Part shown: in pieces, positions 4,106 to 62,805 of the stretch | Layout of the letters: each line of letters opens with the position of its first letter | Position numbering within the stretch: position 1 is the stretch's first letter | Assembly (NCBI GenBank): GCA_964595865.1 | Contig: CAZQRL010000005.1 | Span: 62,433-126,432 of the forward strand | DNA from: an uncultured Chthoniobacteraceae bacterium | GTDB lineage: Bacteria > Verrucomicrobiota > Verrucomicrobiia > Chthoniobacterales > DYNR01 | Reading direction: 5' to 3' | Length of the DNA: 64,000 nt | Position numbers and translations under genes: made by a program | Notes under the pieces: generated by a model | Told to the model about the DNA's origin: nothing | Databases searched by the model: none | The model's input: only the letters and a program-made list of their open reading frames with translations

Positions 4106-5001
4106 GCCCGCTGTGGAAAATTCTCATCTATCTGCTGGCCGTGTTAGCGGCAGCGGTGCTGCTTTCGCCACCGATCTATTGGGTTTGCCAACTGGGCATC
4201 GAGCAAGGCTGGCTGGAGATGCTGCGGGGCTTTCCCTTCCATCGCTACTTCAGCCGCACGCTGCAGGTCGCGGCTTTGCTTCTGGCGATCCCGTTGTTTT
4301 TCTCGCTGCGCTTGCGGGGGTGGTCCGATCTGGGGCTGGAGGGTGATGCCGCGCGCTTCCGCCATTTGGGCCAGGGCTTGCTCTGCGGTCTCTTGCCGAT
4401 CGCCGCTTTGGCCGTCGGGTATTTCGCTTTCGGCATTTATGGATGGAAGGCTGATCCAGAGCTGAGCAAGCTGGGACGCATCGCTCTCACGGCCGCAGCC
4501 GTGGGAGTCTTTGAGGAGCTTTTTTTTCGCGGTCTGCTGCTTGGGCTGGCGGTGCGCTCCCTGGGGGCTTTTGCGGGAATGTTGCTGACGAGTATCATTT
4601 TTGCCGGGGTGCATTTTCTGCGTCCGGCGAAGGCCGGGACGAGCGGTGCGGTGACGTGGTGGAGTGGCTGGGAGCAGCTGCAAGCCCTGTGGAGTAATAT
4701 CCCTCCTTGGCCTCTGCTGGGCTTCGGATTGGCCACACTCTGCATTGCCGGATGGAATCTCGCCTTGGTGACGCGGCAGACCCGCTCGCTCTGGCCGGCG
4801 ATCGGTCTGCATGCGGGGTGGGTCTTTGGTCAGCAGAGTCTCCTGGCCTTGGCCAAGTTTCAGGTGCGCCCCCCCGAGGCTTTGCTGCCGCATGTCGGGC
4901 CCAACTTGGTGAGTGGGGCGGTGCCGACTGGTTGGATTCCCGCCTTGGTTGTTTTACTCAGTGGCTGGTGGCTCTGGCGGTGGCTGCGCCGAAGCGGCTG
5001 A
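4102..5001 (+). CDS. CPBP (Abi/CAAX-II) intramembrane metalloprotease
   Basis: EELFFRG, FAGVHF, SLWPAIGLHAGW motifs; multiple TM segments. Confidence 0.88.
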   Translation: MSPLWKILIYLLAVLAAAVLLSPPIYWVCQLGIEQGWLEMLRGFPFHRYFSRTLQVAALLLAIPLFFSLRLRGWSDLGLEGDAARFRHLGQGLLCGLLPIAALAVGYFAFGIYGWKADPELSKLGRIALTAAAVGVFEELFFRGLLLGLAVRSLGAFAGMLLTSIIFAGVHFLRPAKAGTSGAVTWWSGWEQLQALWSNIPPWPLLGFGLATLCIAGWNLALVTRQTRSLWPAIGLHAGWVFGQQSLLALAKFQVRPPEALLPHVGPNLVSGAVPTGWIPALVVLLSGWWLWRWLRRSG

Positions 5002-5014
5002 GCGCATTCCGGAC

Positions 5015-5758
5015 ATGGAAAGTGCCGCGGCAGAGCGATGGGCGCGCTGGAGGCCCTGGTGGCAGGCTGCTGCGGATTTGCTCTGGCCGCCGCATTGTCC
5101 GGCCTGTGATGTGGCCACGCCAGAACAGGGACTTTGCGCACGGTGCCGGGCTGAATGGCCCCGCATCACCGGACCCCGTTGTGAGGTCTGCTCGCAGCCC
5201 TTTCCCGGCGGGGCAGGTGGGGACTTTGTCTGCGGGAATTGCCGCGATCGCCAATTTCATTTTGTCTGTTCCTTATCTCCGGTTCTTGCCCGGGGTGGAC
5301 CACGTGAGCTCATTCACCGTTTGAAGTATGGACGAGAGCGTTGGCTGGCCACGGTGTTGGCGGAGGAAATGGTCATTTGTCTGTATGAAGAGCGACTGAG
5401 TGGACAAAAGCTGGAGGCTCTGGTGCCAGTGCCGCTGCATCCCCGGCGGGAACGGGAACGCGAATACAACCAGGCCGAGTTGCTAGCCCGGGCGCTGAGT
5501 CGGCGGTGCCATTTGCCTGTAGTCCGGCTGCTCCAGCGGGTGCGTTACACCGAGACCCAAACCCACTTTGATCGCCAGGCCCGCCTGGGAAATCTTCGGG
5601 GCGCCTTTGCCTTGGCCCACGGAGCGGAGCTCGCGGGCAAGAAATTCCTCCTCGTGGATGATGTTTTCACGACGGGTTCGACCTTGGATGAATGTGCCCG
5701 GGTTTTGTTGGCGGGTGGAGCTGCCGCGGTCTGGGCGGTGACGGCGGCACGGGCCTAA
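5015..5758 (+). CDS. comF: ComF family protein (zinc-ribbon region + PRTase domain)
   Basis: Four CxxC pairs, VPVPLHPRR..REYNQAELLA, LVDDVFTTGSTL. Confidence 0.9.
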   Translation: MESAAAERWARWRPWWQAAADLLWPPHCPACDVATPEQGLCARCRAEWPRITGPRCEVCSQPFPGGAGGDFVCGNCRDRQFHFVCSLSPVLARGGPRELIHRLKYGRERWLATVLAEEMVICLYEERLSGQKLEALVPVPLHPRREREREYNQAELLARALSRRCHLPVVRLLQRVRYTETQTHFDRQARLGNLRGAFALAHGAELAGKKFLLVDDVFTTGSTLDECARVLLAGGAAAVWAVTAARA

Positions 5759-5761
5759 ACT

Positions 5762-6697
5762 TTATCCCACTGCCAATGGAAGGGCTGAGGCCGACAGAGA
5801 GTGGTGTGGACCGACCAAGATGAGGGTCGGGCGTGGGTCCTGCGGCGGACTGGGTAAGGGGGCGATCTGGGGGGTATCGCTGGCCGAAACTTTTTGAAAA
5901 ATCACCCATTGCTCAGGTTCCTCTTGGACGCGAGCCAGCCCTTTGGCCCGCAACACTTCCGCCGGAAGATGGCGCAGAAAAGATCGCAAGGTCTCGGGGG
6001 AGATCACTTTGGGGAGAGCGATTTCCTGGGCAGAGAAGTGGTGCTCGTGATGGTGGGCGGAACGGTTTTCATCGGGCTGCTTGGTCAGGCGGCTTTCTTG
6101 CCGGGTTTGCGGGGCTAGGTCCTCCTGCAGGTGCCCCAATGCAGCCGCCAAGGCGGCAGGGTCTGCGGGTTGGACCTCTGGCAACAACGCTGCCAGAGCC
6201 TCGTGGACCTCTTGCAAGCGCTCGGCAGAGACTTCATCGGCGTGTCCGAGATAGAGGTGTGTCGCGGTGTGGACCTGCCGACGTTCGAGTCCATTGTGCC
6301 AAAACCGTTTCTGCCAGCGTTGGACATCCACGACGCTAATTTGCAGCGGCAATGAGAAGGACCGCAGCTTGGGGTCGGAGGCCAAGGCGGCAATGAGTTC
6401 TTCCGCATCGGTGGTGCCGTTGGCTTCGAGGAGCAGGATTCCCCGTGCTGGGTGCGAGTAGGCCAGCAGGGCGGAGCGTAATTCCTCCCGCGACCCGCAA
6501 CAGACGCAGCTGCCGCTGATCGGCGTCACTAGGAACGACAAGTCCCGAAAAAGCTCGGCGTCCACGCGGGCGTTTTGATAGTCGTTGAGAATCAAAGTCG
6601 GCACCCGGCCGGCCAGGATTAGCTCTGGGACCAGCTTGCGCAGGAGGGTGGTTTTCCCTGCTCCGAGAAAACCAACGACGACAACCAAGGGCGTCAT
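5762..6697 (-). CDS. CobW/COG0523 GTP-dependent metallochaperone
   Basis: GFLGAGKTTLL, CVCC metal motif, EANG, short His patch HHHEHH, VLRAKG C-domain. Confidence 0.9.
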   Translation of the reverse strand: MTPLVVVVGFLGAGKTTLLRKLVPELILAGRVPTLILNDYQNARVDAELFRDLSFLVTPISGSCVCCGSREELRSALLAYSHPARGILLLEANGTTDAEELIAALASDPKLRSFSLPLQISVVDVQRWQKRFWHNGLERRQVHTATHLYLGHADEVSAERLQEVHEALAALLPEVQPADPAALAAALGHLQEDLAPQTRQESRLTKQPDENRSAHHHEHHFSAQEIALPKVISPETLRSFLRHLPAEVLRAKGLARVQEEPEQWVIFQKVSASDTPQIAPLPSPPQDPRPTLILVGPHHSLSASALPLAVG

Positions 6698-7311
6698 GGT
6701 TGGCGAAACTCGGTGCGCCGGATCACCGGCTGGAGAATGGGATTCGGATGGGTGGTGATTTTTTGCCCGAGCGGGCGACCATCGGGACCAAAAACCGGAG
6801 TAAGGGTGCGAATGGGGCTCCCGTAATTCACAAACCCCTCCAGCTCCACCTGTCGAAAGCCGCTTTCGCCAAAACTCACGCCCGTGTTGACGGTGCGGAA
6901 GCGCGTGGGAGTCGAAGGCAGCACGACGATTTGTCCTCCGCCGACTTGGATTTGTGCGGGGCTGAATTGCACTGGCACAGGAACTTCCCGGCCGACCGAG
7001 AGAGTGCCGCTGACGCGCTGCGGTCGCAACTCGGTGCGGGCGGCTGCGGTGATGGGATTGGAAGCGGAGGGCAGGCGGATAATTTCCCGTTGTGGGGAGG
7101 GGCTGGGTCGGGGGCGCGGGGTGGGGGAGGGAGTGGGAGTCGGGGTGGGTAGCAGCAGGGGAGGGGGGCCGAGAAGGCTGGGGTCGTTGAGATAGAGGGT
7201 GCCGTGGCGATCCGTTTTGCTTTCCGGGCTGGCGGCCACCAGAAGCTGAAGGCCTGACAGCAGGGCCAAGGCGAAAAGAGCAACAAGGTGAGGGGTGACC
7301 GGGGCGACCAT
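6694..7311 (-). CDS. Exported Pro-rich protein carrying secretin-like C-terminal motifs
   Basis: Signal-like hydrophobic N-terminus, PTPTPTPSPTPRP linker, then PSTPTRFRTVNTGVS, VELEGFVNYGSPI, NPILQPV; stop overlaps the cobW start. Confidence 0.6.
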   Translation of the reverse strand: MVAPVTPHLVALFALALLSGLQLLVAASPESKTDRHGTLYLNDPSLLGPPPLLLPTPTPTPSPTPRPRPSPSPQREIIRLPSASNPITAAARTELRPQRVSGTLSVGREVPVPVQFSPAQIQVGGGQIVVLPSTPTRFRTVNTGVSFGESGFRQVELEGFVNYGSPIRTLTPVFGPDGRPLGQKITTHPNPILQPVIRRTEFRQP

Positions 7312-7317
7312 GGTTTC

Positions 7318-7346
7318 ACTTTAGGGTCAACTGGGCTGCGCGCCAA
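7318..7346 (-). promoter_or_regulatory. Sigma70-like promoter, apparently leaderless
   Basis: TTGGCG-N17-TAAAGT ending 6 nt before the ATG at 7311. Confidence 0.45.
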
Positions 7347-7458
7347 AAAAAAGTTTTTCTCCGCTCCAGCCAGCGGAGGACATCGGGCCGACTGCGGCCA
7401 AGAGAGGAGGATTGCCAAAAGCCAGGGCAGGACGCATCTTTTGCGGTTTTCCTTATCC

Positions 7459-9063
7459 ATGTCCGAGATTTCCCGTCGCCGCACATTTGCGATTATTTCG
7501 CATCCGGATGCCGGCAAAACCACGCTCACCGAGAAGTTCCTGCTTTATGGAGGCGCGGTGCAACTGGCCGGGAGCGTCACGGCGCGCAAAAACCAACGGG
7601 CGGCAACCAGCGACTGGATGGAGCTGGAAAAGCAGCGAGGGATTTCTGTGACTTCGACGGTGTTGCAGTTTGATTACCGCGACTGCGTGGTCAACCTCCT
7701 CGATACGCCCGGACACAAAGATTTCTCTGAAGATACCTATCGGGTGCTGACGGCGGTGGATGCTGCGATCATGGTGATTGATGCCGGGAAGGGGATTGAG
7801 GAGCAGACGCGCAAGCTTTTTGAGGTGTGCCGTCAGCGGGGAGTGCCGATTTTTACTTTTATGAACAAGCTGGACCGCCCGTCGCGTCCGCCGCTGGATC
7901 TGCTCGATGAGCTGGAAAACGTCCTCGGGTTGGCAGCGGTGCCGCTCAACTGGCCGCTGGGAAACGGGCCGTTTTTCAAGGGGGTCTATGATCGCCGCAC
8001 GCGCGAGGTGCATTTGTTTGAAAAGACGCCGGGCGGGGCTTACCGGGCACCGGTGCAGGTGAGTGGGATTGAGGATGCGGTGGTGCGGGAGGCGATGCCG
8101 CCGGATCTGCATGCGCAGCTTTTAGAGGAGGTGGAGCTCCTGGATTTGGCCGGGGTGGAGTTCTCCCGCGAAGCGGTGCTGGCTGGAGAAATGACCCCAG
8201 TCTTTTTCGGCAGCGCCATGAATAATTTTGGCGTGCAGTTGCTCTTGGATGCGTTCTTGGAATTGGCTCCGCCCCCGCAACCGCGCGACGGCTTGGTGCG
8301 CTGGGTGGATCCGCAGGAGCCCGGCTTCTCGGCTTTCGTTTTCAAAATTCAGGCCAACATGAATCCGCGCCACCGGGACCGTGTGGCCTTTCTGCGAATT
8401 GTCTCCGGCTGTTTCCGGCGCGATATGGTGACGCAACATCACCGCACCGGACAAAGCATCCGTCTGGGAAATTCGCAACGGCTTTTTGCCCAAGACCGCG
8501 AAACTGTGGACGAGGCCTGGGCCGGAGATGTGGTGGGGATTGTCGGAAATCTGGATTTCCAAATCGGTGATACCGTGGCCGACGATGGCACCCTCTGCTT
8601 CCGTGAAACCCCGCGCTTCGCTCCGGAGTGTTTTGCCTTTCTGCGCAATGCCAGCACGGCAAAATACAAGCGCTTCCGCGACGGGTTGGAGCAGTTGCTC
8701 AAGGAGGGTGTGGCACAGGTTTTTGAATTACCGGATGCGGTGCAAAAAGTGCCGCTCCTGGGGGCGGTGGGGCCGTTGCAATTTGAGGTGATGCAGCATC
8801 GCATGGAAATGGAATATCAGGCCGAATGTCGCACCGAGCCGTGTGCCTGGCAGATTGCGCGTTGGGTCGTGGATCAGACCAATGGCGAATTCGTCCGCGT
8901 GCGCCCGTCCCTCATTTTGCCGACCGGGGCCGTCTTGGCACTGGATGCTCTTTCCACCTGGGTGGTGCTCCTGCCCTCGGCGTGGACCGCAGCCTACCTC
9001 GAAGAAAAGAACCCCGATTTTGCTTTTCGCAAGCTTCCGCCCCAGGCTGGGGAAGCCGGATGA
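7459..9063 (+). CDS. prfC: Peptide chain release factor 3
   Basis: RRRTFAIISHPDAGKTTLTEK, SDWMELEKQRGIS, DTPGHKDFSEDTYR, NKLD, GAVGPLQFEV. Confidence 0.96.
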   Translation: MSEISRRRTFAIISHPDAGKTTLTEKFLLYGGAVQLAGSVTARKNQRAATSDWMELEKQRGISVTSTVLQFDYRDCVVNLLDTPGHKDFSEDTYRVLTAVDAAIMVIDAGKGIEEQTRKLFEVCRQRGVPIFTFMNKLDRPSRPPLDLLDELENVLGLAAVPLNWPLGNGPFFKGVYDRRTREVHLFEKTPGGAYRAPVQVSGIEDAVVREAMPPDLHAQLLEEVELLDLAGVEFSREAVLAGEMTPVFFGSAMNNFGVQLLLDAFLELAPPPQPRDGLVRWVDPQEPGFSAFVFKIQANMNPRHRDRVAFLRIVSGCFRRDMVTQHHRTGQSIRLGNSQRLFAQDRETVDEAWAGDVVGIVGNLDFQIGDTVADDGTLCFRETPRFAPECFAFLRNASTAKYKRFRDGLEQLLKEGVAQVFELPDAVQKVPLLGAVGPLQFEVMQHRMEMEYQAECRTEPCAWQIARWVVDQTNGEFVRVRPSLILPTGAVLALDALSTWVVLLPSAWTAAYLEEKNPDFAFRKLPPQAGEAG

Positions 9064-60576: not shown

Positions 60577-62805
60577 TCAGTTCGCGGCTGCGACGGTTGC
60601 GGCCAGTTTTTCCAGAATCGCCACCAGGGCTGCGCTTTGCAGAGGCTTGGTGAGGTATTCATCCATCCCGGCCTGGCTACATTGGCTGCTGGCGGCCTCG
60701 GTGACGTTCGCTGTCACGGCGACGATCAGGGTGCGGTTTAGGCCACGGAGTTTTTCCAACTGGCGAATACGGCGCGTAGCTTCCAAGCCATCCAGATGGG
60801 GCATCTGTAGATCCATAAGGATGCAGTGAAAGGACGCGTCCTCGCATGCCTTCACCGCAGCTAGTCCATCGCTGACGACTACCGGGGTGATGCCCAGCTT
60901 TTTGAGGTGGAGCAAAAGCAGCTTTTGGTTGATGGGGTTATCTTCCGCGACCAAAACCTTGAGATGGGCGAGATGAGGGGCCGCAGGGGCGGGGGCACTT
61001 TTCGGAGCCGGTTGCTTTTCTTTGAGCGGTGAGGGCAGGGCCATGACGGCAGGGCAGGGAATGGAGAAATGAAAACAGCTTCCCTGGTTGAGCTCGCTTT
61101 CGACCCAAAGTCTCCCGCCAAGAAGCGAAACCACCCTCCGACAAATAGCCAATCCCAGGCCCGTCCCTCCGTGCTGACGGCTGGAGCTCGCATCTACCTG
61201 GGTAAAAGGGTGAAAAATCGTTTCCAACATATCGGGTGGGATGCCGCACCCGGTATCCCGTACGGAAAAGTGCAGCTCGTTTTCCTTCTCACCCGGTGAA
61301 ACAACAGTCTCCACCTCACCCGTGCTGGTGAACTTGAGAGCGTTACTCAAGAGGTTGAGGAGGACTTGGCGCAGCCGCTGCCGATCGGTGAGGATGCTGG
61401 CGGGGCAGGCAGGATCTACCTGCAAGCTCAGGCGGATGCCTTTGCGGCGGGCGGTGGATTGTTGCAGCTTGGTCACTTCGTCAAGCAGTTGGCGTAAGAC
61501 CACTGGCTCGGTGCTCAGCTCCATGGCTCCGCTTTCAATTTTGCTGAAATCCAGAAGATCGTTGAGCAAGAGAAGCAGGGTCTCACCGCTGTTTTGCACG
61601 GTGTGAACGAACTCCTGCTGCTCGGGGGAAAGATGAGTTGACCGGAGCAGCTCCGTAAAGCCCAGGAGACCATTGAGCGGGGTGCGAATTTCGTGGCTCA
61701 TCACCGCCAAGAAGTCATTTTTGGCTTCGTTCGCTCTCTGGGCCGTGCGGGCGGCCTCCTCCGCCTTCTCGATTGCCGCTTGCAGTTCCCGATTGCTGGC
61801 CTGCAGCTCGGCTTGAGTTTGCAGCAGGTGCTGCTGCGATTTTTCCAAAGACTCCAGCGCTTTCTCGCGTTCTCGTTGATCCCGCAAGATTCGACGGAAG
61901 AAGGACCAGAATACCAAGGCCAGGAGCCCGAGAAATAAAACTGTCGCCCAAAAGATGATCCGCCAGCTCCGGGCCAAGGAGCTGAAGATGCGTTGCTCAT
62001 CAATCGAAACCAGGACGAGGATCGGGCGCTCTGCCAAGGTGAGAGGCGCATAGACCGTGATAATCCAAGGGCCGCTCTGGGTATCCACTCCCCGGTGGCT
62101 GACCTTGCCCTCGTATTGTTCCCGGAGATCCTCCGCCAGCAGTTGTTGCGTCGCAACCGAGAAAAAATCGTCTTTTTCTTTGCGGCTGCCGACGATTTGC
62201 AGCTCGCCTTGATTTCGCAGGAGGGCATGGATGGTGTGGCGGGGATGGCTGGCTTGAAACCGCTGCAGGTGGCTCTGGAGAAAACCCGGGAGGTTGAGCT
62301 CGGCTCGCACTTCGCAAAGCAGGTGTCCGTGCAAATCCAACACAGAGCCGCGCAGAGCATTGGAAGAATCCCGCACTCTTGCCCGAGCTTCCTCCCAAGT
62401 CGGCTGGGAAATGGAGAAATACCCGGCCTTTTCAAAGGTCAATTCCCGCGCCTGGCCTGCTGGAGAGACGATGAGGAGATTGCGCACCAAGGGTTGATTG
62501 AGGGCCAGAAAACGCCGCACCGGGAGGATAATCGCCGGATCGGATTCGTGTCCCTGTAGAAGCTGGGGGTAATTGAGACTGGTCAGGGAAAAGATAAACT
62601 CTTCCCGGAAGTCTTGAAAATCTTCCCGAATGGAACGGACTTGGCCGAGGGCCAGCTGCCGCGCTTCGTTGATAGCCTGCTCGCGTTGGCCTTGGAGCAG
62701 TTGTTGGTTGAGTGACCAGACCGCAATGACCACTCCCAAAAAAACCAGCAGGACCAGGAGACCTGGGACTTTCAAGTGCGACCAGGTGGCAGAACGTGCA
62801 GGCAT
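60577..62805 (-). CDS. Hybrid sensor histidine kinase (TM-sensor-TM-HisKA-HATPase-REC)
   Basis: FLAVMSHEIRTPLN, NLLSNALKFT, DTGCGI, GGTGLGL, AEDNPINQ, ILMDLQMP, YLTKP. Confidence 0.93.
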   Translation of the reverse strand: MPARSATWSHLKVPGLLVLLVFLGVVIAVWSLNQQLLQGQREQAINEARQLALGQVRSIREDFQDFREEFIFSLTSLNYPQLLQGHESDPAIILPVRRFLALNQPLVRNLLIVSPAGQARELTFEKAGYFSISQPTWEEARARVRDSSNALRGSVLDLHGHLLCEVRAELNLPGFLQSHLQRFQASHPRHTIHALLRNQGELQIVGSRKEKDDFFSVATQQLLAEDLREQYEGKVSHRGVDTQSGPWIITVYAPLTLAERPILVLVSIDEQRIFSSLARSWRIIFWATVLFLGLLALVFWSFFRRILRDQREREKALESLEKSQQHLLQTQAELQASNRELQAAIEKAEEAARTAQRANEAKNDFLAVMSHEIRTPLNGLLGFTELLRSTHLSPEQQEFVHTVQNSGETLLLLLNDLLDFSKIESGAMELSTEPVVLRQLLDEVTKLQQSTARRKGIRLSLQVDPACPASILTDRQRLRQVLLNLLSNALKFTSTGEVETVVSPGEKENELHFSVRDTGCGIPPDMLETIFHPFTQVDASSSRQHGGTGLGLAICRRVVSLLGGRLWVESELNQGSCFHFSIPCPAVMALPSPLKEKQPAPKSAPAPAAPHLAHLKVLVAEDNPINQKLLLLHLKKLGITPVVVSDGLAAVKACEDASFHCILMDLQMPHLDGLEATRRIRQLEKLRGLNRTLIVAVTANVTEAASSQCSQAGMDEYLTKPLQSAALVAILEKLAATVAAAN

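Follow-up and report, generated by a model that had tools for sequence, protein, structure and literature searches.

The window considered here is a 64,000-nucleotide stretch of DNA from an uncultured Chthoniobacteraceae bacterium of the Verrucomicrobiota (contig CAZQRL010000005.1 of GenBank assembly GCA_964595865.1, forward-strand positions 62,433 to 126,432). Its intact minus-strand open reading frame (ORF) at 6694..7311, delimited from the ORF list, its translation and a family of short homologues, encodes a product of 205 amino acids (aa) followed by a stop. We find that the C-terminal part of this protein, P0001, is homologous to the inner barrel and both gates of the Amuc_1098-type PilQ secretins, and that P0001 is one of a family of short homologues which are conserved and evolve under purifying selection. 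We favor, at a probability of about 60%, the reading that it is an exported, soluble gate-module protein, an old paralogue of the secretin domain, whose modules would associate side by side like the subunits of a secretin.

The same genome has four genes with Secretin domains, two in tandem on contig 10 (C10) and two classical ones on contig C2. The tandem pair (C10:23339-32142, minus strand) lies downstream of a gene for a 594-aa PilM-like protein and encodes secretins with tetratricopeptide repeats (TPR) of 862 and 831 aa. The former carries the Pfam domains Secretin and TPR_19, and the latter is a full member of the NCBIfam family NF042912 (Amuc_1098_fam, type IV pilus outer membrane proteins), which it matches with 848.8 bits, the cut-off being 750. 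Two unannotated genes (311 and 320 aa) also lie upstream of the pair, and a gene for an L,D-transpeptidase (YkuD) follows it. When P0001 is compared by BLASTP with all 16,930 ORFs of the genome that reach 60 aa, its best non-self match is this 831-aa secretin (E 1.9e-5, 50% identity over 50 aa). At the level of profiles, an alignment of 41 short homologues compared with one of 47 verrucomicrobial secretin C-termini gives an hhalign probability of 99.7% (E 3e-26) and places P0001 101-203 on secretin residues ~606-728. NF042912 is also the sole NCBIfam match of P0001 (E 3.5e-8, with 32 bits where the family requires 750), as it is of two of its homologues (E 2.9e-9 and 7.2e-15, well under that cut-off). 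A search with the short-family profile against 1.84 billion (1.84e9) cluster representatives recovered 158 proteins at E<=0.001, in which long proteins combining TPR and Secretin domains rank after the short forms (E 1e-9 to 1e-4) and are matched at aa ~600-750; Pfam Secretin exceeds its cut-off in 25 of the 42 proteins scanned among the 150 listed matches, several of them with TPR repeats. Pfam detects no Secretin domain in P0001 at E<=1, the sole match being a meaningless one to TALPID3 (E 0.54), while PDB sequences searched with the short-family profile return no secretin and only Pro-rich low-complexity matches (best E 0.053), and the ESM Atlas, which does not contain the exact sequence, gives no usable match for P0001. 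Judged by sequence comparison, the likeness of P0001 to the secretins is far beyond chance. An earlier note on this DNA had recognized in the letters alone a resemblance to verrucomicrobial PilQ (Amuc_1098-type) motifs and had proposed a profile comparison with secretins, and both the significant hhalign result and the BLASTP and NF042912 matches bear it out.

The motifs behind that recognition occur in the translation in the order it gave: GREVPVPVQFSP (aa 107-118), VLPSTPTRFRTVNTGVS (130-146), VELEGFVNYGSPI (155-167) and NPILQPV (190-196). Over P0001 101-203 they correspond motif for motif to REFxYP..PP, PxTPTxFETRxTGV, EFEGFINYGSPI and NxIxQPVF of the Amuc_1098-family secretins, whose PilQ is described as the most abundant outer-membrane protein of Akkermansia muciniphila (PMC4960237). 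The differences are as follows: these secretins have ~800-900 aa against the ~205 aa of P0001, which is without their TPR and N domains, their outer-barrel strands and their VPxLGDIPxxGRLF helix-loop, and verrucomicrobial secretins show IRE where the short forms have GRE. P0001 is thus at most a piece of a secretin and not a family member, as it fails the curated cut-offs (32 bits against 750 for NF042912; no match to Pfam PF00263) and lacks the N domains and the outer-barrel/insertion block.

The extent of the retained piece was mapped onto models and solved secretins. The gate module proper (aa 101-205; 6697..7011, minus strand) is modeled by AlphaFold2 (AF2) as eight beta strands with predicted local distance difference test (pLDDT) values of 84-97. 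VIA-align superposes P0001 98-205 on VcPilQ 430-509 (Z 4.7, root-mean-square deviation (rmsd) 4.2, 65 aligned), a range that holds both the hinge, Gly439, and the lower (S448/S453) and upper (T493) gate hairpins of that protein, as given in its structural report (PMC7545093). Secretins occupy seven of the top 50 VIA-align rows for the P0001 model, including, besides VcPilQ 430-509, PulD 445-530 and BfpB 376-472. In the phage secretin pIV, Gate 1 lies between hinge glycines 267 and 297 (G267-G297) and Gate 2 spans D321-N335, with outer-barrel residues on both sides, according to the pIV report (PMC8563730). On this combined evidence, P0001 comprises the equivalents of the first strand of the inner barrel, Gate 1, the second and third strands, Gate 2 and the beginning of the fourth strand. 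The family-invariant G107 (VGRE) aligns with the classical hinge glycine in ‘vGqEvP’ in the PulD and VcPilQ alignments, G144 precedes strand 2, and strands 2, 3 and 4, which measure 19, 18 and ~17 residues in the secretin model, are down to 15, 12 and 10 in P0001, a shortening by 4-7. The matched secretin stretch is contiguous, with internal shortenings of ~14-25 aa in P0001. The earlier note was therefore right that barrel strands are absent but misplaced the loss, for the absent strands flank the retained segment rather than falling between the motifs. It also correctly described the N-domains as missing, only the signal peptide and a low-confidence Pro/Thr-rich region preceding the module.

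The secretin itself shows what is missing on the C-terminal side. When the last 300 aa of the secretin are modeled with AF2, the top 28 structure-match rows are all secretins (Z 6.9-10.2), among them pIV 243-403 on model residues 56-260 (Z 9.0, rmsd 4.6, 137 aligned) and VcPilQ 420-571 on 61-261 (Z 8.5). After these 28 rows, model residues 64-204 match the coat proteins of single-stranded RNA phages (PP7, Qbeta and others; Z 4.9-5.8), which is probably merely a common curved arrangement of beta-sheets. The C-terminal block of the secretin model (strand E207-223, helix H232-238 and strand E240-255) has no counterpart in the P0001 model. The classical secretins (GspD/PulD, PilQ, InvG and phage pIV; PF00263) share with P0001 the inner barrel with Gate 1 and Gate 2, but P0001 has no direct sequence match to them, whether as PDB secretins or as Pfam Secretin. 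Those with solved structures align to the secretin of this genome almost solely at aa ~720-794 (GGL...VPxLGDIPxxGRLF...NLxIFVT), beginning where the P0001 equivalence ends; P0001 stops at the equivalent of aa ~728, so that the last ~75 aa, which classical and verrucomicrobial secretins share best, are exactly what it misses. The module is rich in charged residues and without a membrane-insertion loop. Without N-domains, without the outer-barrel strands of the C-terminus and without the helix for membrane insertion, P0001 by itself cannot form an outer-membrane pore, in agreement with the initial proposal of a secretin-gate derivative that is not a pore.

Upstream of the module, P0001 has the makings of an exported protein. 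Residues 9-27 are hydrophobic and end in ...LLVAA|SPE, and AF2 places a helix at aa 7-20; from these two indications, rather than from a dedicated predictor, we assign a signal peptide to aa 1-27 (7231..7311, minus strand), with cleavage guessed after VAA. The region that follows (aa 28-100; 7012..7230, minus strand) has pLDDT values of 47-76 (67-76 for aa 41-70) and no secretin homology detectable by profile-profile comparison; it consists of a motif, GTLYLNDPSLL...PLLLP, followed by a linker rich in Pro, Thr and Ser at ~aa 49-73, in which Arg is also frequent over ~aa 55-73. Both the signal-like N-terminus and the Pro/Thr linker had been anticipated and can be read from the translation, the signal peptide as a prediction. 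The motif, in the form GT.YL.DP.LL...P.LLP (window 7141-7194, aa 40-57), is common to one subgroup of the family (P0001-P0005, P0031, P0036, P0038 and P0046), and a Terrimicrobiaceae-like subgroup has in its place an acidic EEEEEIR.NHRFLGEP. Either type of motif could be a docking peptide.

P0001 is not a solitary protein. A word-index search retrieved 28 related proteins of 170-222 aa, and among the cluster representatives 24 of the 25 at E<=1e-10 have 59-287 aa; none of the eight short representatives scanned has any Pfam family. All 41 aligned members have a hydrophobic start and a Pro/Thr-rich linker, conserved in composition as a block of columns throughout, and end 5-10 aa past the QPV motif. 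Named carriers among genomes are Chthoniobacter sp., Terrimicrobiaceae and ‘Spartobacteria’ metagenome-assembled genomes. Across the module of 20 short-form genes, the ratio of non-synonymous to synonymous substitution rates (dN/dS; Nei-Gojobori) is 0.05-0.45, with a median of 0.115, in the 25 of 190 pairs that fall within 0.05<dS<1.5; pairs with the gene of the window are saturated (proportion of synonymous differences, pS, 0.68-0.80) and give no estimate. The conserved short homologues with dN/dS below 1 that the earlier note had asked for thus exist, and its prospect of a decaying fragment falls away. In a quick maximum-likelihood tree of the gate segments, a single branch separates the 41 short forms from the 47 secretins (SH-aLRT, the approximate likelihood-ratio support, 98), although the long-branch sequences P0052 and P0061 sit near the split. 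The branch lengths between the two groups are 0.87 and 1.36, a deep split. The tree is consistent with a single old origin of the short forms and argues against repeated local truncations.

The modules may also retain the lateral association of their secretin relatives. When four copies of P0001 aa 98-205 were co-folded with the alignment of 41 short homologues, the score was 0.46 (median of three runs) against 0.02 for the best control, with at least 96% of contacts shared between runs and a partner pLDDT of at least 76, which passes the tool’s test for a complex. In the calibration of the tool, 20 of 30 proteins known as one-chain pairs came up to the mark, as did 1 of the 23 known as single chains, counts that hold only roughly for P0001, for which, unlike in the calibration, four copies and a custom alignment were used. 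The predicted interface joins residues 102-113 with the neighbor’s 192-205, and residues 122-138 with 161-172 and 180-185; it includes the family-invariant F138, Y163, P132, P135 and Q194. In pIV, Gate 1 contacts Gate 2 of the neighboring subunit (PMC8563730), and the contacts predicted for P0001 match this secretin-type pattern, with the inner-barrel sheets joined and Gate 1 meeting the next Gate 2. Whereas secretins assemble as rings of 12-15 subunits, the prediction for P0001 covers four copies; we put the chance that P0001 self-assembles into an arc or ring at about even.

Taken together, P0001 would be an exported, cysteine-free soluble protein with a signal peptide, a flexible Pro/Thr-rich region of ~70 aa and a beta domain of ~105 aa, the latter being an old paralogue of the inner-barrel/gate part (Gate 1 and Gate 2) of the Amuc_1098-family secretins. 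After export the module would be soluble in the periplasm, where modules could join by the first strand of one copy lying against the last strand of the next, with Gate 1 of one packed against Gate 2 of its neighbor, yielding an arc or ring of gate modules. Since the secretin conserves the residues of this interface, the module might in addition dock onto the PilQ gates of the cell.

Several observations weigh against this proposal. The structural matches of the P0001 model to secretins are weak (Z 3.6-4.7) and intermixed with unrelated rows, and Foldseek finds none in the PDB for it at E<=0.001. The four-copy score may reflect the model’s memory of solved secretin rings; since such rings are in the training data, it indicates likeness and is not proof of binding. 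In secretins, moreover, the inner barrel is packed with its outer face on the outer barrel, so that a free inner barrel would need stabilization of another kind. The distribution is patchy, the short form occurring in only 2 of 60 genomes of the same order; the 25 other matching genomes of the order match through long frames, 24 of them of 679-940 aa and one a 382-aa frame on a 1.7-kb contig. No pilus or secretin gene adjoins the short-form gene in the loci examined, and there are no RNA runs among the listed carriers of the window DNA.

A different possibility is that the module acts on the cell’s own Amuc_1098-type PilQ, as a plug, a gate mimic or an assembly modulator, through a shared Gate 1/Gate 2 interface. 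The predicted interface residues F138, Y163, P132, P135 and Q194 lie in motifs that are invariant in the secretin family too, which would make docking onto the PilQ gates possible, and the tandem Amuc_1098-type secretins beside the pilM-like gene provide a potential target in the same genome. We nevertheless consider this unlikely. As the short-form gene never adjoins pilus or secretin genes, there is no genomic link to PilQ at any locus examined; the deep split of the short forms from the secretins does not imply co-evolution with the present secretin; and in the assembled ring the gate interfaces are all taken by neighboring subunits (PMC8563730).

The gene downstream suggested another connection, namely that P0001 works with a COG0523 GTPase in the homeostasis of a metal, zinc or cobalt, and might, for instance, respond to that metal in the periplasm. 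This cobW-like gene (5762..6697, minus strand; matched above the cut-offs by Pfam cobW with 82 bits and by CobW_C with 35.7 bits) encodes a GTPase with a CxCC motif (GSCVCCG) and a His-rich run (HHHEHH) typical of zinc-type COG0523 proteins; it stays below every NCBIfam subfamily cut-off, with 59 bits against 332 for CobW and 34.5 against 600 for ZigA. Its ATG overlaps the TGA of the gate-module gene by 4 nt as ATGA, the overlap that the earlier note had reported, and two relatives retain the arrangement, one a 99.7%-identical contig, the other a ~93%-identical one bridging 5582-7079. Beyond these, a cobW homologue is found near the short-form gene at none of seven genome loci (among 80) and none of 15 metagenome loci (among 80) by BLASTP at E<=1e-5, nor next to it in either of two same-order genomes by Pfam annotation of the neighbors, which makes 0 of 24 other loci overall. 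Because the pair occurs only in close relatives (~93-99.7% identical), the coupling to a CobW metallochaperone proposed at the outset is a feature of the lineage of the window and not a property of the family. Elsewhere the neighbors vary by lineage and include genes for a peroxiredoxin, an N-acetylmuramoyl-alanine amidase, a resistance-nodulation-division (RND) pump, a glycoside hydrolase family 35 (GH35) enzyme, a Mur ligase, RecQ and an aldo-keto reductase; the peroxiredoxin, amidase, Mur ligase, RecQ and RND pump are unrelated housekeeping genes. Opposite-strand genes often flank the short-form gene, and no conserved neighborhood of any kind was found among its loci. The gate module, for its part, is without cysteine, and its sole histidine, H188, is not conserved, being Glu in the family consensus and variable among members. 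A role in metal homeostasis is, on this showing, improbable.

The least tenable alternative, a functionless leftover from duplication of a secretin gene or an ORF that arose by chance, could appeal to the lack of any Pfam family in P0001, the patchy distribution among relatives and an excess of changes within the frame (9 of the 11 differences from the 99.7%-identical contig over 3.5 kb, 4 of them non-synonymous), but is already contradicted by the intact frame, by a signal peptide and linker that a secretin fragment would not be expected to have, by short homologues conserved in several lineages with the same C-terminal end in all, by the median dN/dS of 0.115 and by a confident domain model with pLDDT above 90.

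The contig in question, of 33 kb and from another study, spans window positions 5000-8500. Of its 11 differences from the window over this span, the 618-nt ORF of the gate module accounts for nine, four non-synonymous (S19P, P71L, S72T and L131V) and five synonymous, so that divergence is ~1.5% within the ORF against ~0.07% in its flanks. This excess may be a local patch of recombination, or else relaxed or diversifying change.

On the other side, the gate-module gene is separated by an intergenic region at 7312..7458 from the divergent, upstream prfC, which was identified through Pfam GTP_EFTU and RF3_C and whose ATG is at 7459. A consensus scan of 5600-7600, to which promoters of other types are out of reach, found neither sigma-70-like promoters nor intrinsic terminators, and 7290-7470 holds no inverted repeats; the promoter of its own that had been claimed for the gene was therefore not confirmed. 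The window DNA is also present in hot-spring and microbial-mat metagenome runs.

How does a gate-module protein compare with known systems at the secretin? Small secretin partners, such as the pilotins PulS/AspS/TadD, TsaP and BfpG, are small exported proteins, many of them lipoproteins, that are not derived from the secretin domain. P0001 resembles them in being small and, by prediction, exported, and could likewise act at a secretin, but is itself a secretin-domain paralogue and has neither a cysteine nor a lipobox. An identity as a lipoprotein or pilotin is ruled out for P0001 because its translation contains no cysteine and hence no lipobox; the sequence ...IGC... is present in some short homologues only.

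Another case is offered by two BlaR1-type M56 membrane proteins of ~605 aa, P0060 and P0159. Their C-terminal secretin domain is degenerate (of the 169 positions of Pfam Secretin, 1-125 and 3-124 are matched), with the gate motifs intact and the VPxLGDIP membrane-insertion block lost. Like P0001, they have a secretin-derived gate region outside a pore-forming secretin; unlike it, they are fused to a membrane metalloprotease-like sensor, retain full-length inner-barrel hairpins together with degenerate C-terminal strands, and fall outside the short family. In them the gate region of a secretin has independently, for a second time, been put to a use other than a pore. A further protein, P0051 (681 aa), combines a small beta domain at its N-terminus, which P0061 has as well, with a gate module that has lost its Gate 2 loop (YGSGIKQPVF) and, after it, a weak Peptidase_C39-like region (E 0.0016, below the cut-off).

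A more ambitious scenario, to which we give rather little credence, would see the inner barrel and gate as an autonomous folding and oligomerizing unit that was released as a separate protein. In these Verrucomicrobia it would serve as a free periplasmic diaphragm or, docked on the Amuc_1098-type PilQ, as a detachable second gate with control over the passage of pili or the tightness of the envelope. In the lineage of the window, a zinc-type COG0523 chaperone would be linked to its production, and with the M56 fusions it would form a class of non-pore secretin-gate proteins.

To our knowledge, the double-walled barrel of the secretins has always been regarded as one unit. Literature searches, whose coverage ended short of supplements and subscription journals, found no description of a stand-alone secretin gate module, the work on PilQ of A. 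muciniphila dealing solely with the full-length protein (PMC4960237). We take the gate-module protein to represent a new architecture and, with its short homologues, a new and so far unnamed family that arose from the secretin domain. The relevance for secretin biology is limited by its narrow taxonomic range. Within that range, it gives an origin and a name to a group of exported proteins labeled ‘hypothetical’ in Chthoniobacterales-like Verrucomicrobia, and it draws attention to other roles of the secretin gate outside pores, as in the BlaR1-type sensor fusions. It may also offer a natural minimal system for the folding of the gate, for the contacts between neighboring gates and possibly for gate regulation. 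More generally, a conserved and selected family reduced to the inner wall with its two gate loops would demonstrate that this portion of the secretin can stand by itself.

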